Below, one piece after another: positions 1-24,002 of a DNA stretch of 24,002 bases. Positions within the stretch are counted from its first letter, which is position 1; every line of letters begins with the position of its first letter. Both the position numbers and the translations under genes were made by a program. Origin of the DNA: a virus. The notes below the pieces were generated by a model that ran no database searches, had not been told where the DNA came from, and worked only from the letters and a program-made list of their open reading frames with translations. The stretch lies in the UHGV virus genome UHGV-0067928. One strand, given 5' to 3'.

Positions 1-13
1 TGACGGGTAAAAA

Positions 14-1207
14 GTGGATAAAATAATTTTACCCACCGGATTTTTACCCATGCTCACCGTTAAGCAGATTGAAGCAGCAAAGCCGAAAGAAAAACCATAC
101 CGCCTTCTCGATGGTAATGGCCTGTACCTTTATGTCCCTGTGTCAGGGAAAAAGGTATGGCAGCTTCGCTACAAGATTGACGGTAAGGAGAAAATCCTGA
201 CTGTCGGAAAATATCCGCTTATGACTTTGCAGGAGGCAAGGGATAAAGCATGGACTGCGAGGAAAGACATCTCGGTTGGCATAGATCCGGTAAAAGCGAA
301 AAAGGCTTCGTCTAACAACAACTCCTTTAGTGCCATTTACAAGGAATGGTACGAGCACAAGAAGCAAGTGTGGTCTGTAGGGTATGCGACTGAACTTGCC
401 AAAATGTTTGATGACGACATTTTACCCATCATCGGCGGTCTCGAGATTCTGGATATTGAGCCGATGCAACTGCTGGAAGTAATCCGCAGATTTGAAGATC
501 GCGGTGCAATGGAGCGAGCCAACAAAGCCCGCAGAAGATGCGGCGAGGTTTTCCGTTACGCTATTGTCACTGGTAGGGCTAAATATAACCCGGCACCTGA
601 CCTTGCTGACGCCATGAAGGGATACCGCAAGAAAAACTTCCCGTTTCTTCCTGCAGACCAGATCCCGGCATTTAACAAAGCACTGGCAACATTTTCAGGA
701 AGCATCGTATCGCTCATTGCGACCAAGGTTTTACGCTATACAGCCCTAAGAACGAAAGAGCTTCGTTCCATGCAATGGAAGAACGTCGATTTTGAAAACA
801 GGATTATCACCATCGACGCCAGTGTGATGAAGGGTCGCAAAATTCATGTGGTTCCTATGTCAGACCAGGTGGTTGAACTTCTCACTACGCTAAGCTCAAT
901 CACTAAACCAGTATCAGAGTTTGTTTTTGCCGGTCGCAACGATAAGAAGAAGCCAATCTGCGAGAACGCGGTATTGCTTGTGATCAAACAAATCGGCTAT
1001 GAGGGTCTGGAAAGCGGTCACGGATTCAGGCATGAATTCAGCACAATTATGAACGAGCACGAATGGCCTGCTGACGCCATTGAAGTGCAACTTGCACATG
1101 CCAACGGCGGATCTGTGCGCGGAATTTACAACCATGCTCAGTATCTCGATAAACGCAGAGAAATGATGCAGTGGTGGGCGGACTGGCTTGATGAAAAGGT
1201 GGAGTGA
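14..1207 (+). CDS. int: Tyrosine integrase, P4-type (site-specific recombinase)
   Basis: 397-aa ORF with the N-terminal pattern typical of P4-family integrases (IEAAKPKEKPYRLLDGNGLYLYV) and a C-terminal catalytic region. ATG at 50 (MLTVKQIEAAKP...) is the more likely true start; GTG at 14 is the longest-ORF start. Confidence 0.9.
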   Translation: MDKIILPTGFLPMLTVKQIEAAKPKEKPYRLLDGNGLYLYVPVSGKKVWQLRYKIDGKEKILTVGKYPLMTLQEARDKAWTARKDISVGIDPVKAKKASSNNNSFSAIYKEWYEHKKQVWSVGYATELAKMFDDDILPIIGGLEILDIEPMQLLEVIRRFEDRGAMERANKARRRCGEVFRYAIVTGRAKYNPAPDLADAMKGYRKKNFPFLPADQIPAFNKALATFSGSIVSLIATKVLRYTALRTKELRSMQWKNVDFENRIITIDASVMKGRKIHVVPMSDQVVELLTTLSSITKPVSEFVFAGRNDKKKPICENAVLLVIKQIGYEGLESGHGFRHEFSTIMNEHEWPADAIEVQLAHANGGSVRGIYNHAQYLDKRREMMQWWADWLDEKVE

Positions 1208-11746: not shown

Positions 11747-12447
11747 CAGTCAATCAGCCCATGTAATCTAAGTGCTGTTTCAAGCGCCAGAATACGCTGC
11801 CGCGCCTGCTGCAAACCTGTAGCGAGAGCCGCGACTTCGGATTGCGTGTACGTAGTGCCGACCGTGTATGACTGGTTAGCGTTGAATGAGCCAAGAAGAG
11901 GTGTACCTGTGGCTGCAGTCCATCCGGTCTGCCTTGCTCCAACGACCTGAATTCCATCAACTGAATATGATGTTTTTACATCCAGCGGTGACGCAAGAGA
12001 CTGCGATTCGGTTACGGTTTTCGATACGTAATCACTCTTAATGTCAGATACATCGCTTTCTACGCCATCCAGTCTTTGGTCAACAGTGACCAGATGCGCC
12101 TGAATATCGATAACCTCATCCAGCAAGTAATCAACATCGCTACGCAGTACGACTATCTTCCCTTCGGCGGTTGTTAACCTGACCTCAAGGAGATTTATCG
12201 CTTTTGTGTTTGCGGTGATTCTTGCATCGTGGTCAGCCAGTTCGACATCCTGTTCATCGTTTTTCACCTGAGCATCGTAAGCGCCCTGACCAGCCTGATT
12301 TGCCTTCCCGGCAATTGCGCCGACATCAGCCCCCTGATTAATGACATACAGCAGGTAAGACTGGCTGAAGATATTGCGTGGAAGGATTGATGTATCGAGT
12401 CGTGTAGCCTGAATTGTTACCGGCTCATTGAGATTCGAATCAGCCAT
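11746..12447 (-). CDS. Tail needle protein, P22 gp26-like
   Basis: [25 protein letters not shown]...[30 protein letters not shown]...[13 protein letters not shown] follows P22 gp26 along its length (233 aa). Start chosen at the ATG at 12447, which has GGAGG 7 nt upstream. Confidence 0.85.
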
Positions 12448-12985
12448 TAACATGCCTCCACGATTTACCAGACTGGATATTGTGAATCACCGTCTGACTG
12501 ACACAGTATTTTTTAGCAAGCTCTCTTTGATTAACTCCCTTTGATTTCTTTATTTCTATTACTTGCTCATATGAGAGCTTTGAAATTGGATTATTTTCTC
12601 CTTTTAAAGCCGGAAACTTCACCCTGCCTTGAGATGAGCAATGCTTCATATTCTCCTTTTGAGTACACCACTCTAAATTAGAAGCATTATTATTTTTTCG
12701 GTTGTTATCTATGTGATTTATGAACGGCTTGCCTTCTGGATTGGGGACGAAAGCAAGAGCGACAAGCCTATGCACAAGCCATTTTACTTTAACTCCATCA
12801 ACACTAAGTGGCAAATATAGATAACCTTTATTATTCTCGTGTTGTTTTAGCCACCGACCCTTTCTGAGTTGCGTGCTGCCATGAGCAGCCTTAACAACAC
12901 GTGAGTGAGAATATACTCGCCCATCCTCTGTTACGGCATATAAACCTTCATATCCAGGAATATCTTTTGCGTTTTCACTCAACAT
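12440..12985 (-). CDS. HNH homing endonuclease (NUMOD4-like N-terminus plus HNH motif)
   Basis: N-terminus [18 protein letters not shown] and HNH core [23 protein letters not shown]; SD AAAGGAG. Lies between gp10 and gp26, which are adjacent in P22. 3' end overlaps the gp26 start. Confidence 0.8.
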
Positions 12986-13005
12986 ATCTACTCCTTTAGT
13001 TTCGA
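12845..13005. repeat. Direct repeat copy A (5' end and leader of HNH gene)
   Basis: About 160 bp that are near-identical to 14815-14985, including an identical ~47-nt run CCTTTCTGAGTTGCGTGCTGCCATGAGCAGCCTTAACAACACGTGAG. Confidence 0.7.
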
Positions 13006-13006
13006 T

Positions 13007-14425
13007 TTATGTTACACGAATAGAAAGGCCTGATAATGTAACAGGACCTTTTGCAATAACTCTGAATTTAAATCCAATGAGGCGTCTAACTCGACCAACT
13101 TTTCGCCATAAAACGCGATTGTCATATACAAATGGTTTTTGTAATACGACCATTTGCTCACGACCGTAATTAATTCCATCTGTAGTTGCTGATATAAATA
13201 TTCTATCTATTCTATCACACACGCCGCCAGATGTTTCTAATTCAAGGTCATTTATTAAAACGTTATCTGCCTTTATTAAAGGAGAATATAAAATATGTTC
13301 CTGTTGCTTGTCGTACTGGCTGCTGATGTCGAATTGCAATTTCCCGGTCACGGACTCCAGCTTATCGCCGCACGTTATCTGATTGCCTTCGTAAATGAAG
13401 TCGATAGCGCGGTACACATCGTCATACAGGCCTGTTTTCAACACACACCATTGCGGACCATTGGCGCTTGAAGATGCGTCGTACACCAGAACATGGCGCG
13501 GAAGATGGATAATCAGCAGCTCATGCGCATCAAATCGCAGCGATTCCATCACGCCATCAGCCAGTTCATCAGCAGTGTAGGAGCGGAGGATTTTCTCAAT
13601 GCTCGCGCTGGCGATTGGTGACACCTGACCTGAGCCGATGATGTATACAGACGGCGCACCTGTTGCCGGATTGCTGATGAACGCATACGAATCAGCGAAT
13701 GGAGTTTTGCAATAAGTCCCAGCAATACCTTTCTGCACCATCAGCGATGGCTGTGCGACATACAAAGCGGCACCAACAGTGGTTGCACCAGTCAGGGAGA
13801 AATATTCAATAGTCGATGAACCAAAGCAGACGATGAAGTCTCGCCATGTCCCGATACCGATGATGCCGTCCGGCTGAGACTCGGCACGATATTGTGCACT
13901 GTAGCGGTCAGGATGCGATTCGTCTTCAAGGTCAGTGATAAACCATGAATCCGTGCCGTCTTTTGACCACGCATAACGCCCACGTAAGCGTGTAATGTCG
14001 CGGACTGAACCTAACTCATACTGAGTGAATCCGCTGTCTGTAGGCCAGTTTGAGACGGTTTTAACCGTGCCATCATAACGATACTCGACCAGTTGACCAT
14101 TAACGCCTACAGCCTGAGATGTCCGACCATGAGCCATTGATACTCGACCACTTCCGGCAACATCACCGACCTCACTTTCGCCCTTATACAGTTTGCCACC
14201 ACACACGCGATAAACAGCATTCTGCGCCATGTTGTACTCGACGCCGCGAGATACACCGTTCACATCAGAGCGTTTGGCAATGCCCGGGAATGAGCGAAGA
14301 TATCCCGATGAATTCAACACCTCCTTGGGCGTAGCTAAAAGATTGACTGGAAGTTGGTCTATATAATCAGCATTAACCGCACTTTTCCCCAATCCCTTCA
14401 TTAGTGGTAGTTGTTGTATTGCCAT
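13007..14425 (-). CDS. Tail hub protein, P22 gp10-like
   Basis: 472 aa, the same length as P22 gp10; N-terminus MAIQQLPLMKGLGK...ADYID..LPVNLLATPKEVLNSSGYLRSFPGIAKR matches the gp10 family. Confidence 0.85.
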   Translation of the reverse strand: MAIQQLPLMKGLGKSAVNADYIDQLPVNLLATPKEVLNSSGYLRSFPGIAKRSDVNGVSRGVEYNMAQNAVYRVCGGKLYKGESEVGDVAGSGRVSMAHGRTSQAVGVNGQLVEYRYDGTVKTVSNWPTDSGFTQYELGSVRDITRLRGRYAWSKDGTDSWFITDLEDESHPDRYSAQYRAESQPDGIIGIGTWRDFIVCFGSSTIEYFSLTGATTVGAALYVAQPSLMVQKGIAGTYCKTPFADSYAFISNPATGAPSVYIIGSGQVSPIASASIEKILRSYTADELADGVMESLRFDAHELLIIHLPRHVLVYDASSSANGPQWCVLKTGLYDDVYRAIDFIYEGNQITCGDKLESVTGKLQFDISSQYDKQQEHILYSPLIKADNVLINDLELETSGGVCDRIDRIFISATTDGINYGREQMVVLQKPFVYDNRVLWRKVGRVRRLIGFKFRVIAKGPVTLSGLSIRVT

Positions 14426-14957
14426 TGGAATCAGCCTTTATATGAACCCAGTTAGCATCACGCTTTAGCCTACTTGCCCAGGTCTTAGATATTCCGTACT
14501 TAGCCGCAATTACTGACAAGCTTTCTTTTGATGACTTGATTGCAAGAACATCGTCATCACTCAACTTGTGCTTTGGGTGCTTGGTTCCGAAAAACTTGAT
14601 TGGTTTCTTTAATCCGGTGGCGTATGCATGTTTGATGTTTTCGCTTTGAGTGCACCACTCAAGATTATTGACGTTATTATTGAGTGGATTGCCATCAATA
14701 TGATTTACCTGAGGCTTGTTTTCAGGATTTGGCAGGAATGTCATTGCAACGATTCGATGGGCAAAAGTCCATTTTGCTCCGATATTATAAAGCACCCTTC
14801 CCTGATTTATTTTAGGCTTTAACCAGCGCCCCTTTCTGAGTTGCGTGCTGCCATGAGCAGCCTTAACAACACGTGAGCGAGAATACACCCTGCCATCTTC
14901 TGTTACGGCATAAACACCTTCAAATCCAGGTATATCTTTAGCATTCTCAGAAAGCAT
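14373..14957 (-). CDS. HNH homing endonuclease (paralog of 12440-12985)
   Basis: First ~47 residues almost identical to the other HNH gene; HNH core NHIDGNPLNNNVNNLEWCTQSEN; SD AAGGAG. Inserted between gp4 and gp10, with its 3' end overlapping the gp10 start by 53 nt. Confidence 0.8.
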   Translation of the reverse strand: MLSENAKDIPGFEGVYAVTEDGRVYSRSRVVKAAHGSTQLRKGRWLKPKINQGRVLYNIGAKWTFAHRIVAMTFLPNPENKPQVNHIDGNPLNNNVNNLEWCTQSENIKHAYATGLKKPIKFFGTKHPKHKLSDDDVLAIKSSKESLSVIAAKYGISKTWASRLKRDANWVHIKADSNGNTTTTTNEGIGEKCG

Positions 14958-14985
14958 ATCTACTCCTTAAAGTTTCGATTTTTCA
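14815..14985. repeat. Direct repeat copy B (5' end and leader of HNH gene)
   Basis: Partner of 12845-13005. Confidence 0.7.
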
Positions 14986-17972: not shown

Positions 17973-19688
17973 TTAACTCGGCATTAAGTCTGCCGGTGAC
18001 TGTGGTGGTGACTGGAATTGCTGTTGTTGTGACTCGGCGACATCTTTCAGAAGGCGTATTGCCTCCATCACTGCTTTGTCATCGATGTTTCTGGCTTGAG
18101 CCAGTTTATAGACAGTGTTTGCCTGACTCTCCATCGCATCCTGCTGGGCAGTAAATGCTTTGATTTGAGTTTGAGCAGTTTCGTTAGTTGCTTTTTGCGC
18201 TTCTGCCTGCGCTGCTACCATTTGCGCCTGAGCGAGAACCATTTCAGGATTTGGCTGGCTTTGTGCTGCCATTTGCGCCTGTTGAACAATCTGCTGCTCT
18301 TTCTCATTGCGTGGTTTTGCAATACCAGATATCAGCAGTTGGTTTCGGTTGTACTCTTTGAAGTCATCAAGGCCTTCGCCATCGATATTGTCCAGAATAA
18401 TACCCTGAATTGCCGGGCGCATTGGGTCTGTTGGAAGCATAGAGCTAAGGACATTTGTCAGTACAGAAACCGTTGCATCACGTCGTGCTGTGTAGCTTGG
18501 TCCAACATCAACCGTCACATCGTATCGACCGACAGAAAGGTCATTTAACGCAACAACAGCCCCTGTTTGCCTGTCAACAACCTGTGCGCTCAGGACAGCG
18601 ATATCATCACTTCCATCTTCGTTAACGATGCGCACTTCACGCTCTGAACCGTACACTTCACGCGCCATTGACAGCCATACTTCACCAGCGCGTTTAAGAC
18701 TTTTCGCCATATTGTCCAGATAGATAAACGAAGCCATATCTGCTCTGTTCATCAAGTTGTTAACCGTTTCCTGAGCAATATTACTTGGCATCTGCTGCAT
18801 GGCCTGACTGCCGCCTGTAACCTCCTGAATATCAGCACTGGTTTGCTGTAGTAATGCAGCCAATGCCTGATTCATAACCGCAGGCTGTGTATATCCTGCC
18901 GGGGTAGCTCCAGCGATAATGTTGCCAGATTTATCTCTCACTTCGCGCAACGGCAAGAACGCTGGGCGTTTCTTGTTGCGAGCCTCCCAGTGCTTCTCAA
19001 GTCCACGAATTTGCTCCATGCCAACTATAGGGATCTGACCGGGGTCTTGCGCTGCAGTATCAGCCAGCATTGAAACCTGAAGGTTGTACAAACGCTGTGG
19101 ATCCATTGCTTTTGCAATGTGCCCTTCGACACGCTCAATGTCATCAATGAACCAGCGTTTTCCATAAACCGGGATGAGGGGGATATGCTCACCAGGAATA
19201 CGTCGAGGTTTCTCAAGGAAACCATCACCATCCACTACGGATACATACACACGACGGCGCTTCACTGAGCGCCTTGCCACTTCCTGAAATCCAGCTATTG
19301 CCAGTTCATCTTCAATATCTTCAACCTGATCACTGTCGTATGTTGCAATCTCTCCAGTGATTGAATGTCGATAACTGATGACGTCAACAGACTCTTTACG
19401 AACTTCGTAATACTTCGCTATGTAAATAACATCTGCATCAAACCAGTCATATTCCCAACTGGTCATAGACGTTACATCCAGAGAAGCAGGAGGTTTCTTT
19501 CCGTATTCAGCCTCATATTTTTCAGGTGACAACGAATACATGCAGAACGCCCACAACGCGTCAGATTTGTCGTACTTCTTAGCGTCAGGGTCAAACCACA
19601 CAGAGCGCGACGGGTCGTATATTGGTTCAATAGCAATACGCTGACGATCGTCCATGGGGTCGTATTCATTGACCAGCATCGACGTCAA
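17973..19688 (-). pseudogene. Portal protein (P22 gp1-like), 5'-truncated
   Basis: Aligns to P22 portal from about residue 150 onward (e.g. GFQEVARRSVKRRRVYVSVV versus the P22 ...IKRRRVYKSII region) through the Q-rich C-terminal barrel. An in-frame stop 12 codons upstream and no ATG; the ORF-track start is a TTG. Confidence 0.8.
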
Positions 19689-19713
19689 ACGGAAGCAACC
19701 GAAACCACCAGCA

Positions 19714-19923
19714 ACCGAGGTTCATGTCGGAATTAATGGCGTGATGCAAATGCTTGGCGGCATTGGCGACAGCAAACAACAAGCAGCCAGCAGGCAATCA
19801 CAGAAGCCACAGCAGCAATCATCACCAGCACAACACAACGAACCTCCGATGGATTTTGACGACGATATCCCCTTTGCACCAGTAACTCTCCCTTTCCCTC
19901 GTCACGCTATTCACGCAATTTAA
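19714..19923 (+). pseudogene. ssb: ssb 3' fragment (single-stranded DNA-binding protein C-terminal tail)
   Basis: TEVHVGINGVMQMLGG...NEPPMDFDDDIPF matches the SSB C-terminal region and acidic tip. The OB-fold N-domain is absent, and 15 extra codons follow DDDIPF before the stop. Confidence 0.75.
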
Positions 19924-19931
19924 GGACTTAC

Positions 19932-20480
19932 ATGAATCACTTGATGGTTGACCTTGAAACAATGGGCAACGGGCCATACGCGCCAGTTATTTCTATTGGG
20001 GCGGTATTCTTTGACCCGAATACCGGAGAAACAGGAGAAGAGTTCTCGGTAAATATCTCGCTTGAGTCATCAATGCGATATCTGGCGCGTCCTGACGCTT
20101 CAACGATTTTATGGTGGCTGGAACAGAGTGAAGAAGCCAGAAAATCGCTAACCAGCAACACTCAGGAGCTTTCAACGGCTCTTTCATGGTTATCTGAATT
20201 CATCATAAAGAACGCCAACCACAAACTCGTTCAGGTTTGGGGGAATGGAGCATCATTTGACTGCGTTATTCTCCGCAACAGTTATTCGCTGACAGGGCAG
20301 CCAGTTCCGTGGCAGTGGTGGAATGACCGCGACGTAATAACAATCGTCGAACTTGGGAAGGTAATAGGATTCGATCCTAAGCGAGATATGCCATTCAAAG
20401 GAACTCGCCACAACGCGCTTGATGATGCCATCCACCAAGCCAAATACGTTTCAGCGATCTGGAAAAAGTTAGCTAAATAA
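19932..20480 (+). CDS. DEDD-type 3'-5' exonuclease (DnaQ/RNase T-like)
   Basis: N-terminal MVDLETMGN (Exo I D-x-E motif) and C-terminal H-x-A-x-x-D (HNALDDA); 182 aa; SD AAGGA. Confidence 0.7.
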   Translation: MNHLMVDLETMGNGPYAPVISIGAVFFDPNTGETGEEFSVNISLESSMRYLARPDASTILWWLEQSEEARKSLTSNTQELSTALSWLSEFIIKNANHKLVQVWGNGASFDCVILRNSYSLTGQPVPWQWWNDRDVITIVELGKVIGFDPKRDMPFKGTRHNALDDAIHQAKYVSAIWKKLAK

Positions 20481-20496
20481 TCAACAGGAGAAAACC

Positions 20497-20793
20497 ATGC
20501 CAGCGCCTCTATATGGTGCGGACGACCCGCGCCGCTGTTCCGGCAATTCCATATCGGAGGTGCTGGAAAATATCAAGAATAATCTCGACGCGTTTCTTTC
20601 TCTGCCACCAGAAACAAAAGAAGAACGGAAGTACCGACGCGATATACAACTCGCAGAAAAACAGGAAAAAGACCGAATAAACGAAACATCAATCCGACCA
20701 TTCCGCAAATCCACATATACCCACTTCCCTGAATATATCGACCCGCGCCTGCGTAATTACCGCTCACGCTATGGCGCTATCAGTAATGACTGA
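20497..20793 (+). CDS. Hypothetical protein (98 aa)
   Basis: SD AGGAG 6 nt upstream of the ATG; basic C-terminal half; no domain recognised. Confidence 0.5.
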
Positions 20794-20803
20794 GGAATTT
20801 ACC

Positions 20804-20968
20804 ATGAGAGGACTTGCATACAATCCCGGCATTCTTCCGGCAGAAATGATTATTCGCCAACGCGTAAAGCCAATGCCATCGAGAGAGGAATTACTTAAGA
20901 GAAATTCTTTTCCATCAGTGAATCAAAACAAGTATCTGAATGCGATGTTGCGGAGTGGGAAGAAATGA
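20804..20968 (+). CDS. Hypothetical protein (54 aa)
   Basis: ATG at 20804 preceded by TGAGGAA; stop overlaps the next start (ATGA). Confidence 0.4.
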
Positions 20969-21555
20969 AACAAATGACACTAATTGAGATGGATGGATTT
21001 CTGAAAGGTAAATGCATTCCACGAGATTTAAAGGTTAACGAAACAAACGCTGAATATCTGGTGCGTAAATTTGCTGAAGCGGAGGCCAAGATTTCGGCTC
21101 TGTACGAAGACCACCAGAAAGCGATTGAGTCAATTAAGCAGGCTGATGCAGCTGTTAAGTTGGCACACGAGAAGTTTTCAGCGCTGGCTGCTGAGAATGC
21201 TGGGCTGAAGGCTGTGGAGTCCAACCTGGTGAGAAACATAATTAACGACCTTGGCGATACGGAATACCAATACGAAAAAGTCCAAACCCCAGCTACCGAC
21301 GCTTTCCTGGCTGAAGTACGTGCGGAAGCACGCAACGAGGGGATTAACTATACCGCCAGCCGTCTTGCTGCTGCGTTCAATCACGGATTTATCAATAAGT
21401 CTTTGCGTGAAGTTTTCGACGTTACACGCATGATTTTGTCAGCGAAAGAAGAGTTGGCTAATGAAGCGCATCCGATTGATGGCCTATCTGGTGAATATGC
21501 GGAGAAATCCCTTGAAGAATGGGCGGAACAGATTCGCAAAGGAGGCAACCAGTGA
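20965..21555 (+). CDS. Hypothetical coiled-coil protein (196 aa)
   Basis: Translationally coupled on both sides; Ala/Glu-rich heptad-like segments. Confidence 0.55.
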
Positions 21556-22349
21556 GCAAGATTGACTATCAGGCACTGCGTGACAAGGCAGAGAAAGCAA
21601 CGTGTGGGGTGTGGTCGCTCGAATATGGAGAGAGCCGATTTGATTGTGATGATGCGCTAATTCATCGTGAAATTGCTGGATATATTCCCATTTGCAGAAT
21701 TGAAGGAGCGCATCCAGAAAGCGGCTTCGATGAAGATTTCCAAATGGAACAGCAGGCCAATGCTGAATTCATCGCCGCAGCCAGTCCAGCTACCGTGCTG
21801 GCGCTACTTGATGAACTGGAAGCAGCAGAGAAGCGGATTGCTGAATTGGAGTCGCTGACGGCTCCACGGTTAACGCAGCAAGCGGTGCCGGATGAAATGC
21901 CGGAGCCAGATACCACGAGAATGTTCTTTACCGATGCAGTTGTGGCAATAGCTAAGGCTCAAGGCTGGAACGCATGCCGCGCCGCTATGCTTCATGGGGC
22001 CGAACCTGTAAGTGAACATGATGAGTTGCCGCTGGACTATCTTCAAGGACACAAAGACGGCCTGGAGTGGGCTGCACAATTGGCAGAAGCCAATCATCCG
22101 CAAACAGGTGACTGGTTGTACGACGACCCAATCGATCTTGCCAGGGCGATTCGTAAAGGTCCTGATATGCCTACTGTTCAGGCTGGCAACTCTCCGGTAA
22201 CTCCGGATGGTTGGGTTATGGTGCCGAAGGAGCCAACTCAGGCCATGATTAAAGCGTGGCTATCAGAGATTGCTAACTTTCGCGGTCATGCTGCTGGTTA
22301 CAGGGCTGCTATAGAAGCAGCACCACAACTGGAGGTTAACCGTGGCTAA
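21552..22349 (+). CDS. Hypothetical early-region protein (about 265 aa)
   Basis: GTG at 21552 overlapping the upstream stop (GTGA), with AAAGGAGG 7 nt upstream. Coiled-coil centre. No confident family. Confidence 0.55.
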   Translation: MSKIDYQALRDKAEKATCGVWSLEYGESRFDCDDALIHREIAGYIPICRIEGAHPESGFDEDFQMEQQANAEFIAAASPATVLALLDELEAAEKRIAELESLTAPRLTQQAVPDEMPEPDTTRMFFTDAVVAIAKAQGWNACRAAMLHGAEPVSEHDELPLDYLQGHKDGLEWAAQLAEANHPQTGDWLYDDPIDLARAIRKGPDMPTVQAGNSPVTPDGWVMVPKEPTQAMIKAWLSEIANFRGHAAGYRAAIEAAPQLEVNRG

Positions 22350-22626
22350 CCTGCAACTTGCCGTCAAAGGTGAATACTTCGATTCCATGATTCGCGGAGA
22401 TAAAACGGAAGAGTATCGCCTATGTAATGACTACTGGAATAAGCGAATTATGTTCCGCGAGTATGACCGCCTGATTATCACAAAGGGATATCCGAAGCGC
22501 GAAGATTCCAGCCGTAGAATTGACGTCCCGTACGACGGATATGAAATCAAGACAATCACACATCCGCACTTCGGTGATAAACCGGTAAAGGTATTCGCGA
22601 TAAAGGTGAATATCGGCAATGAATAA
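22342..22626 (+). CDS. ASCH-domain protein (putative)
   Basis: Contains GDKTEEYR, which matches the GxKxxExR signature of ASCH/PUA-like domains; 94 aa; GTG start with GGAGG upstream. Confidence 0.5.
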   Translation: MANLQLAVKGEYFDSMIRGDKTEEYRLCNDYWNKRIMFREYDRLIITKGYPKREDSSRRIDVPYDGYEIKTITHPHFGDKPVKVFAIKVNIGNE

Positions 22627-22668
22627 CAATCCTCGCACTCGCGGGGATTTCTTTTATATGGGGATAAT

Positions 22669-23469
22669 ATGGCCATCCACTTTCACGGCAGCCCAATATG
22701 GGGGGATGAGCATGCCCCCACAGATATGCTGATTAAAGCCCTTTACCGTGATGGTGGGGCTTTTGTTTCATTCGCCAGACCAGAGCAGATGAAAAAGATT
22801 GCCATGTTCCCTTGTGATATACGCCTTGATAACGGCGCTTTTAGCGACTGGATGAAAGCATTAAAGAAAGGCACTCCGGTAGACTGGAGTAAGAGACGAG
22901 CAAAATTCTACGATTTTGTTGGGAAGTGGTTCAGCAGAATTGAATGGTTTCTTATACCTGACGTTATCGAAGGGACAGAGGCAGAAAACGACGAGCAGAT
23001 TGAGTTGGTTCCTGATTGGCTAAAATCAAAAGCGGTTCCTGTCTGGCATACCGACGAATCAATTGAACGTCTTTTACGCCTTTCTGGCAAATTTGAATGG
23101 GTGGCGATTGGATGCTGCGGCCCACACAGGCACATACGCTCTAAATGGTGGGAACAGAGAATGGATGAAGTTTTCACTGAGCTTTATATCAATCGTAATT
23201 TGAAAGTGAAAATTCATGGTCTTCGAATGCTCGACGTGAGAGTTCTTGGTATGTATCCGTTCGCCAGTGCGGATTCTACTAATGTTGCTGTTAACGTACC
23301 GAAGACAGAGAAGCGATTTCCTGAGATTATCGACAAACTGGCACGTACAGCTGTACTTCGCGCTGCTATTGAAAAGGTGCACCCGCCATCGATATCAGCA
23401 TGGGTAGACAGAAAGATGAGAGAGCCGGCGCAAGCCGGTTTTTTATTTGAATTCACCGACGCCGCTTAA
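22669..23469 (+). CDS. Hypothetical protein (266 aa), function unknown
   Basis: Long clean ORF with a mixed alpha/beta character; no motif recognised. Flanked by 13-bp direct repeats GGATTTCTTTTAT. Confidence 0.55.
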   Translation: MAIHFHGSPIWGDEHAPTDMLIKALYRDGGAFVSFARPEQMKKIAMFPCDIRLDNGAFSDWMKALKKGTPVDWSKRRAKFYDFVGKWFSRIEWFLIPDVIEGTEAENDEQIELVPDWLKSKAVPVWHTDESIERLLRLSGKFEWVAIGCCGPHRHIRSKWWEQRMDEVFTELYINRNLKVKIHGLRMLDVRVLGMYPFASADSTNVAVNVPKTEKRFPEIIDKLARTAVLRAAIEKVHPPSISAWVDRKMREPAQAGFLFEFTDAA

Positions 23470-23526
23470 TGCGGATTTCTTTTATCTGAACTCGCTACGG
23501 CGGGTTTTGCTTTATGGAGATGATAA

Positions 23527-23694
23527 ATGCACTTCCGAGTCACAGGTGAATGGAATGGAGAGCCATTCAACAGAGTTATCGAAGCAGAGGACATCAATGA
23601 CTGCTATAACCACTGGATGATATGGGCGCAGATAGCAAATGCAGACATAACCAATATTCGAATTGAAGAACTGAAAGAACACCAAACCGCCTGA
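23527..23694 (+). CDS. Small hypothetical protein (55 aa), below the ORF-track size cutoff
   Basis: ATG at 23527 with GGAGA 6 nt upstream; its stop is embedded in the following terminator. Confidence 0.35.
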   Translation: MHFRVTGEWNGEPFNRVIEAEDINDCYNHWMIWAQIANADITNIRIEELKEHQTA

Positions 23695-23708
23695 TGGCGG
23701 TTTTTTAT
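23684..23708 (+). terminator. Intrinsic terminator upstream of xis
   Basis: AAACCGCC-TGAT-GGCGGTTT followed by a T-run (TTTTTTATT). Confidence 0.6.
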
Positions 23709-23751
23709 TGCCTGATTTGCAGGTTCGATTCCCTATTCGGAGATAGCACTC

Positions 23752-23952
23752 ATGCAACACGAACTACAGCCTGATTCACTGGTTGATTTGAAATTCATCA
23801 TGGCTGATACTGGCTTTGGTAAAACCTTCATCTATGACCGGATTAAGTCCGGAGACCTGCCTAAAGCCAAAGTTATCCACGGGCGAGCAAGATGGTTATA
23901 TCGTGACCATTGTGAATTCAAAAATAAGCTCTTAAGCCGCGCCAATGGGTAA
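23752..23952 (+). CDS. xis: Excisionase / AlpA-family DNA-binding protein
   Basis: 66 aa with the pattern of AlpA/Xis-type winged-helix proteins (FGKTFIYDRIKSGDLPKAKVIHGRARW). These are normally encoded just upstream of P4-type integrase genes. Confidence 0.75.
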   Translation: MQHELQPDSLVDLKFIMADTGFGKTFIYDRIKSGDLPKAKVIHGRARWLYRDHCEFKNKLLSRANG

Positions 23953-24002
23953 AATAGCGGGTAAAATATTTCTCACATCTAAAAAACACCATTCTAATCA
24001 AC

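Follow-up and report, generated by a model that had tools for sequence, protein, structure and literature searches.

The window analysed here, the whole 24,002-nt stretch of UHGV virus genome UHGV-0067928, is a P22/Sf6-like (Lederbergvirus-type) prophage of E. coli. The tailspike and virion genes are carried on the minus strand, and a leftward early operon, read on the plus strand of the window, has an excisionase gene as its final gene, close to the prophage end. The following features were found to bear on the region under study.

About 51-1207, + strand: integrase gene.
17973-19688, - strand: portal gene without its 5' part (571-aa ORF, profile positions 138-671 of 681).
19654-19920: 3' fragment of an ssb gene, abutting the portal ORF.
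19654 to xis/torI at 23752-23952, + strand: leftward early operon.
21519-22349: Ead/Ea22-like ORF of 276 aa, early-left.
22342-22626, + strand: ASCH-domain gene (phrog_625, E 3.9e-50), upstream neighbour of the insert.
22628-22657, + strand: predicted tL4-type intrinsic terminator (hairpin 22628-22649 and then a U-tract), including the left copy of a 13-bp repeat.
22658-23485 (equivalently 22645-23472), + strand: 828-bp insert, by alignment against HF4s, HK022 and phiv205-1.
22669-23469, + strand: dpdA-like gene, 266 aa, predicted TGT-fold TIM barrel.
23419-23452, + strand: strong terminator-like hairpin and T-run from the terminator scan, within the last 17 codons of the dpdA-like ORF.
23462-23485, + strand: weak hairpin CCGC-UUAAU-GCGG, its loop containing the stop codon, and then the right copy of the 13-bp repeat.
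23488-23515, + strand: second linker hairpin (23488-23507) and U-tract (-11 kcal/mol, z -2.65; terminator scan).
23527-23694, + strand: orf55, homologue of lambda 'lambdap35' (phrog_676), downstream neighbour of the insert.
23684-23703: bidirectional terminator ending orf55 (-13 kcal/mol, z -3.61; terminator scan).
23752-23952, + strand: excisionase gene of the TorI/Xis type (phrog_66).

In the related locus L003 the RefSeq name for the upstream neighbour is 'ASCH domain-containing protein', and the excisionase gene is annotated as torI and adjoins host dsdC. The truncated portal gene abuts the 3' fragment of ssb, and therefore one deletion took out the region between them, comprising the rest of the early-left region, pL/N, immunity, replication, nin, Q, lysis and the terminase genes. 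An intact relative in E. coli LR-29-1 has the order N ... erf-like, ssb, abc2, ea genes, ASCH gene, dpdA-like gene, orf55, torI and host dsdC, with the dpdA-like gene downstream of N within the leftward operon. The 266-aa product of this gene had been described in a sequence-only reading of the window as that of the largest early-left gene, a description that fails on the Ead/Ea22-like ORF, which is ten residues longer.

The protein had also been put down as having no motif that could be placed. It is 98% identical to HK106 gp29 (YP_007151699), which Hutinet et al. 2019 had already entered as a singleton DpdA in their Supplementary Data 1, under the phages encoding DpdA only (PMC6884629). The 'singleton DpdA' cluster of gamma-proteobacterial phages was suggested by those authors to have possibly diverged in function (PMC6884629). 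The listing of HK106 is confined to the supplement, and nothing was found when article full texts were searched for HK106 together with 7-deazaguanine. In PHROGs the protein matched phrog_887, 'queuine tRNA-ribosyltransferase' (E 1.6e-101). Pfam gave a sub-threshold match to Gene66 only, NCBIfam and PADLOC gave no match, and the PDB returned only noise, whether searched with phmmer or with the family profile. The family is large, counting 2220 word-index matches and 2061 representatives at 50% clustering. The AlphaFold2 model, built with 37 homologues, is a (beta/alpha)8 barrel (pLDDT 90, pTM 0.87) in which residues 255-266 have pLDDT below 50, and Foldseek with this model returned generic TIM barrels only. 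The family profile was found by hhalign to match the genetically validated CAjan DpdA with 96% probability (E 4.7e-9, 194 columns), pairing LDNGAFS with LDSGAFS, PVWH with PCFH and SADST with SCDSS, whereas no relationship to E. coli Tgt was detected (probability 0.5%).

The residues D54, D98, H127, G148, G151 and D202 are invariant in the family down to 43% identity, as is the D202-S203 pair; F58 is at least 90% conserved among the 37 homologues and L185 is nearly invariant. These positions follow the order of D95, F99, D130, H181, G206/G207, L236 and D256 of the bacterial enzyme bDpdA, in which D95 acts as general acid/base and D256 as nucleophile (PMC10164549). The D54-N-G-A-F58 segment matches the pattern of a general acid/base Asp with a gating aromatic residue (bDpdA D95...F99), and D202 matches the nucleophile Asp after the last barrel strand (bDpdA D256). 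D98, H127, G148 and G151, candidates for the Asp, His and Gly-rich loop that recognise the base (bDpdA D130, H181, G206/G207), stand in the right order, with D98 in an hhalign register three residues off the CAjan Asp. The predicted catalytic residues are D54 as general acid/base (LDNGAF), D98, H127, G148/G151 and D202 as nucleophile (SADST). Cysteines occur at 49, 149 and 150 only, none of them after D202, and the protein has no counterpart of the Zn subdomain found in TGT and bDpdA. CAjan DpdA is likewise without the Cys cluster, and therefore the Zn site marks bDpdA and TGT and not the phage DpdAs. The protein is thus predicted, from fold, profile match and invariant residues, which establish its family membership, to be a DpdA-family 7-deazaguanine DNA transglycosylase, a minimal TIM-barrel member of the TGT superfamily of the phage 'singleton' type. 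The earlier guess of a DNA modification function agrees with this prediction, to which homology, fold, gene neighbourhood and domain fusions all point.

Among its characterized relatives, the DpdAs of Salmonella phage 7-11 and Pantoea phage MED16 are 58% and 42% identical, respectively, over at least 89% of the length. The modification in both phages is dADG, not dPreQ0, at 50 per 10^6 nt in 7-11 DNA (~0.02% of G; PMC6884629) and 354 per 10^6 nt in MED16 DNA (~0.13% of G; PMC8306585). No protection of MED16 DNA was detectable with the restriction enzymes tried (PMC8306585). Both enzymes are singleton DpdAs relying on host precursors, as proposed for the window protein, and dADG in the phage DNA is linked to the gene by association; they differ from it in their lytic or unrelated phage backgrounds and in their genomic slots. 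The DpdA1 enzymes of CAjan and 9g (Queuovirinae) share the fold class and the catalytic motifs and, like the window protein, have no Zn cluster and no DpdB partner, and the 9g DpdA alone puts dPreQ0 into plasmid DNA. They are only ~19-24% identical to it, and their phages have their own FolE/QueD/QueE/QueC pathway with ~25-32% of G modified, whereas the singletons are without pathway genes and their relatives show at most 0.13% of G. Different again is bDpdA of the S. Montevideo Dpd island (PDB 7ui4), a 413-aa protein with a large Ins8 insertion and a structural Zn that needs the DpdB ATPase and belongs to an 11-gene R-M system, in contrast to the 266-aa window protein with no Zn site and no dpdB-K genes. 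No direct assay of a member of the singleton subgroup was found in the literature, and recent DpdA studies (WASA V. cholerae, Dag glycosylases) concern the Queuovirinae-type DpdA, not the singleton subgroup.

In homologues of 76-87% identity the gene overlaps the stop codon of a YhhQ/VUT-family gene (PF02592) lying upstream, to which it is translationally coupled; YhhQ/VUT is reportedly, after Zallot and co-workers in 2017, the family of the preQ0/preQ1 importer. Domain fusions, each in one lineage, join the family to Dam (PF05869), to a D12-class adenine methyltransferase (PF02086) and to QueD/PTPS (PF01242), although in some of them the gene caller may have merged neighbouring genes. The transporter overlap and the fusions together link the family to a DNA substrate and to the 7-deazaguanine pathway. 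In the window itself, no gene for synthesis or uptake of 7-deazaguanine precursors is linked to the dpdA-like gene, and the precursor preQ0 is presumably supplied by the E. coli host.

The very low modification levels of 7-11 and MED16, together with the possible functional divergence flagged by Hutinet et al., could be taken to mean that the gene is a decayed or diverged relic, inactive or merely binding or sequestering preQ0, that hitch-hikes in a variable region. Some E. coli copies are indeed frameshifted (H158-H162), others are reduced to scars with the end of the gene only, and the operon promoter is deleted in the window prophage. This explanation was considered unlikely, as the residues of catalytic type are strictly invariant at all levels of identity down to the lowest compared, the family is large, and its linkage to a deazapurine-precursor transporter and QueD is conserved. 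A tRNA-directed TGT, as the database name of phrog_887 would imply, or a Cap10-like enzyme attaching deazaguanine to protein, was considered quite unlikely. The closest matches, in structure as in profile, are with DNA-specific DpdAs, related phages contain dADG in their DNA, and DNA as the substrate is also suggested by the fusions to DNA adenine methyltransferases of two kinds. Furthermore, the lack of the Zn subdomain, with the cysteines placed as above, and of extra tRNA-binding domains, the failure of hhalign to relate the profile to E. coli Tgt and the presence of Tgt in the host speak against a tRNA substrate, and no Cap9/QueC-like or CD-NTase partner is encoded nearby.

The gene was noted earlier to be bracketed by a 13-bp direct repeat, and the 13-mer GGATTTCTTTTAT was confirmed on the + strand at 22645-22657, ending 11 nt 5' of the ATG, and at 23473-23485, beginning 3 nt past the TAA stop. 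These are the only exact copies in the window. The ASCH/phrog_625 gene adjoins orf55 in the insert-free phages HF4s, HK022 and phiv205-1, which have exactly one 13-mer at the same place; their empty sites read ...CCTCGCACTCGCGGGGATTTCTTTTAT joined to CTGAACTCGCTACGGCGGGTTTTG..., with both flanks matching the window. The ends of the 828-bp presence/absence insert coincide with the 13-mer in all three independent empty-site phages, in line with the suggestion that the repeats are cassette boundaries. The insert consists of the junction and RBS, dpdA as its single ORF, the gene's own terminators and the duplicated 13-mer. Both repeats lie at identical offsets in all IMG/VR copies of at least 97% identity with flanks present (~29 loci), four of which have one mismatch in one repeat copy. 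The cassette is carried by 82 of 5426 complete E. coli genomes, the locus being present in 3635. HK106 has the same insert (97.5% nucleotide identity), with the tL4 hairpin on its flank and orf55-xis downstream, and no preQ0 synthesis genes in the phage; it differs in a right repeat with one mismatch (GGGTTTCTTTTAT), in the gene upstream of tL4 and in being an intact siphovirus of the HK97-like type and not, like the window, a P22/Sf6-like prophage with a deletion.

The left copy of the repeat lies in a predicted terminator. The left hairpin (22628-22649) has 9 bp, with -14.3 kcal/mol and z -3.75 in RNA folding, and was also found in the terminator scan. The homologous 29 nt aatcctcgcattcgcggggatttctttta is annotated as 'tL4 terminator' in GenBank X51962 (HK022 int-xis region); the name is taken from this feature only, as nothing relevant to tL4 was found in the literature. 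The 13-mer is made up of the last two stem bases and the U-tract of this terminator. Both copies had been placed just after a short GC stem, which was correct for the left one, whereas the stem before the right one, CCGC/GCGG (4 bp, 23462-23474; -6.8 kcal/mol, z -1.2), is not distinguishable from those of shuffled sequences and was missed by the terminator scan, which found the other four hairpins. Judged from sequence and fold, the left element has the GC-rich hairpin and U-tract of a Rho-independent terminator and the right one does not. The left element is accordingly taken as a predicted Rho-independent terminator, tL4, and the right copy as a recombination joint or terminator remnant, not a second good terminator. 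The hairpin within the ORF (23419-23452) is stronger than either (-17.2 kcal/mol, z -4.78); it codes for the disordered tail of the protein (...EPAQAGFLFEF) and is kept in homologues of 76-87% identity.

Those homologues, which lie in other prophages, are without the 13-mer, and several of them end in terminators of their own with the stop codon in the loop (L045, GCCGCTTAAGGGCGGCTTCTTTTTT; L043, GCCGCCTGATGGCGGCTTTTTT), which the window's GCCGCTTAATGCGGATTTCTTTTAT resembles. The weak right hairpin is thus probably what remains of the terminator that belonged to the gene, now fused to the U-tract of tL4. The simplest reading of the right copy is that the cassette's terminator was joined through short homology to that U-tract, in which case the sequence 3' of the joint would be recipient sequence. 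Later replacement left its traces in L055, L056 and in three E. coli genomes, where other cargo is followed by no more than the final ~90 nt of the gene together with the 13-mer. In L042, a VUT gene occupies the left side and the 13-mer is present in its right copy alone; this locus may be a recombinant within dpdA, a secondary one and hence not decisive for the order of the joints.

The slot was found to be used by other genes as well. The second linker hairpin lies directly 3' of the lone 13-mer in empty sites, and 120 IMG/VR contigs contain the 13-mer followed by this hairpin. In ~112 of them the tL4 hairpin is directly upstream and comes just after the stop codons of varied genes; the 3' end of dpdA takes this upstream position in five contigs and a different small cargo in three. 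The same small cargo occurs in the Stx2a phage Stx2_16002, with its right joint exactly at GGATTTCTTTTAT, and L008 has unrelated cargo with the same right-side joint position. On the left, a base other than C follows the tL4 unit in 32 contigs (24 continuing into dpdA, six that are empty-site point variants, and two, L190 and L199, with an unrelated large module joined exactly after TTTTAT). Yet another gene is placed after the second hairpin in Kapi1 and Stx2 phage I. As varied cargo is found at the same joints, the terminator U-tract is a recurrent mosaic joint of a hypervariable accessory slot.

An exact direct repeat that flanks an insert and is lacking as a pair in one-copy relatives is formally the signature of a target-site duplication, as would be left by a transposable or site-specifically inserting cassette. 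This origin is very improbable. No transposase, integrase or recombinase gene was found within the 828 bp and no terminal inverted repeats at the insert ends, 13 bp is an unusual duplication length, and the GC content of the cassette (46.4%) equals that of the window (45.5%). Moreover, the right copy occurs without the left one in L042, L055 and L056 and with unrelated cargo in L008, the left joint is common to the unrelated modules of L190 and L199, and homologues elsewhere have no repeat and end in their own look-alike terminators. Even less credible is a chance coincidence unrelated to the history of the gene: U-tract sequence is of low complexity, ~6.4 exact direct 13-mer pairs are expected in order-1 Markov randomised windows and 43% of these have at least one within 1.5 kb, so that the pair is not improbable per se and its significance depends on the comparative data, which effectively refute chance, as the indel boundaries of the three empty-site phages fall exactly on the repeat and the pair is kept in all high-identity copies.

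The whole explanation that was judged probable is therefore that of a singleton DpdA in an optional cassette of the pL operon, with the 13-bp repeat arising from a joint in the tL4 U-tract. In lambdoid and P22-like phages the cassette has its place distally in the leftward early (pL) operon, within a conserved intergenic linker, between tL4 and the second hairpin upstream of orf55-xis. The proposal of a moron did not hold in its textbook form: the cassette is inserted between genes that are adjacent in relatives and has its own terminator (23419-23452), but neither a promoter of its own nor a deviant base composition. No sigma-70-like sites were detected by the consensus scan in 19500-24002, against 6.8 +/- 2.4 in shuffles. 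It is because no promoter accompanies the gene that the cassette is not a classic moron, and the insert is an operon cassette and not an autonomous, lysogen-expressed moron. Mosaic module boundaries and morons of lambdoid phages were reportedly treated by Juhala and co-workers (Hendrix) in 2000. The cassette has in common with them an optional gene between genes adjacent in relatives, delimitation by terminators and joints in a reused linker, and differs in having no promoter and no deviant composition. The dpdA-like gene was thus already catalogued, and the repeat is ordinary lambdoid mosaicism at a known terminator.

The cassette is without a promoter and would therefore be transcribed only by N-antiterminated pL transcripts, which after induction or infection would read through tL4 into dpdA, a timing suited to post-replicative modification. 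In the mechanism expected from homology to bacterial DpdA and TGT, Asp202 would attack C1' of the target deoxyguanosine while Asp54 protonates the leaving guanine, and the covalent enzyme-DNA intermediate would then be resolved by a 7-deazaguanine base that displaces the enzyme (double displacement). The incoming base would be preQ0 or the amide derived from it, ADG, made by the host through FolE/QueD/QueE/QueC; a host origin is proposed since genes for the synthesis are missing from the phage. Singleton phages generally have hosts with a full queuosine pathway (PMC6884629). Replicated and packaged phage DNA would then carry sparse marks of dPreQ0 or dADG, probably in a sequence-specific manner, and the benefit may be the evasion of some restriction or modification-dependent system. 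Since pL and N were lost from the window prophage, the intact gene is probably an unexpressed, silent passenger here.

The main value of these results is one of annotation. The RefSeq/PGAP label is 'hypothetical protein' in every E. coli copy listed, and the gene, carried by the 82 complete genomes, can now be named as encoding a predicted DpdA-family DNA transglycosylase. The locus also provides a base-resolved case in which terminator U-tracts are used repeatedly as joints when lambdoid phages exchange accessory genes, a principle already established. A more speculative idea, which we hold to be doubtful, is drawn by analogy with the orphan Dam/Dcm of phages: singleton DpdAs of temperate enterobacterial phages may be 'orphan' modification enzymes whose sparse, motif-specific dADG or dPreQ0 marks mimic the Dpd self-mark or blunt other modification-sensing defence. 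If so, the precursors would come from the host preQ0/ADG pool or from YhhQ/VUT salvage, the transporter being that of the ancestral two-gene module, the phage would pass through Dpd-positive hosts, and the low levels in 7-11 and MED16 would be due to the rarity of the recognition motif and not to weak activity. HK106, or an inducible prophage with the cassette in the tractable E. coli K-12, would be a convenient system for the study of singleton DpdAs in temperate phages.

In several relatives (loci L010, L038-L047 and L059/L060), the dpdA homologue belongs to a two-gene module and is translationally coupled to a YhhQ/VUT-family transporter gene (PF02592), which has been lost from the version in the window; in L059 and L060, a Dam methyltransferase is fused to the DpdA domain. 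The gene was found in 82 complete E. coli genomes, and all the E. coli copies among the matches listed (H125-H164) carry the RefSeq/PGAP label 'hypothetical protein'. The copies in H158-H162, with 98.3% identity, are each divided into a pair of ORFs, with a 1-nt deletion as the apparent cause. In two relatives and two further E. coli matches, the last ~90 nt of dpdA and the 13-mer are the sole remnant, lying behind unrelated upstream genes. These remnants are scars, other cargo having taken the place of the cassette in some prophages. The same slot also holds other small cargo genes, among them a 103-aa Cys-rich ORF that Kapi1 and Stx2 phage I (L007 and L009) carry as an insertion 3' of the second hairpin, and an insert in a Stx2a phage (L008) that replaces the tL4 hairpin and contains a short ORF along with TTGCAT...TATAAT, which resembles a promoter.

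L055 2500-2612, L056 2500-2618, and E. coli matches H163 and H164: dpdA remnant with 13-mer
L008 880-1240: ~340-bp insert, Stx2a phage Stx2_16002

The coding sequence of dpdA itself carries a further signal.

Window 23419-23452: strong terminator-like hairpin with a T-run, inside the dpdA coding sequence

This hairpin is retained in homologues of 76-87% identity (L010, L038-L047), even where the stop codon overlaps the next gene, and its position within the ORF makes the conserved C-terminal peptide ...EPAQAGFLFEF a translated terminator. The distal early-left operon as a whole looks promoter-depleted and terminator-enriched: between 19500 and 24002 a consensus scan returned no sigma-70-like promoter sites on either strand (6.8 ± 2.4 in shuffles), and nine terminator-like sites were found vs 4.1 expected.

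Elsewhere in the window, two sets of repeats were detected.

Window 12846-12996 and 14818-14968: 151-nt direct repeat, 87% identity, spacing 1972 bp
Window 1-50 (adjoining int) and 23950-23975 (just past xis): repeated GGGTAAAA / TTTTACCC motifs

The former contains a 48-nt exact run; it takes in the starts of two virion genes on the minus strand, ORFs 12440-12985 and 14373-14957, together with the sequence upstream of each. The latter, present at both window ends, could be arm-type sites in the attachment regions, bound by Int/Xis (TorI).

Between these ends, the prophage has suffered a deletion.

Window 17973-19920 (- / +), junction about 19690-19711: truncated portal gene and ssb fragment

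The portal gene (- strand) lacks its 5' third; what is left of it covers profile positions 138-671 of 681 and is directly adjoined by a 3' fragment of ssb (+ strand). Gone between the two are the remainder of the early-left region along with pL/N, immunity, replication, nin, Q, lysis and terminase. Running from int at one end to xis at the other, the 24-kb window amounts to essentially an entire defective prophage.
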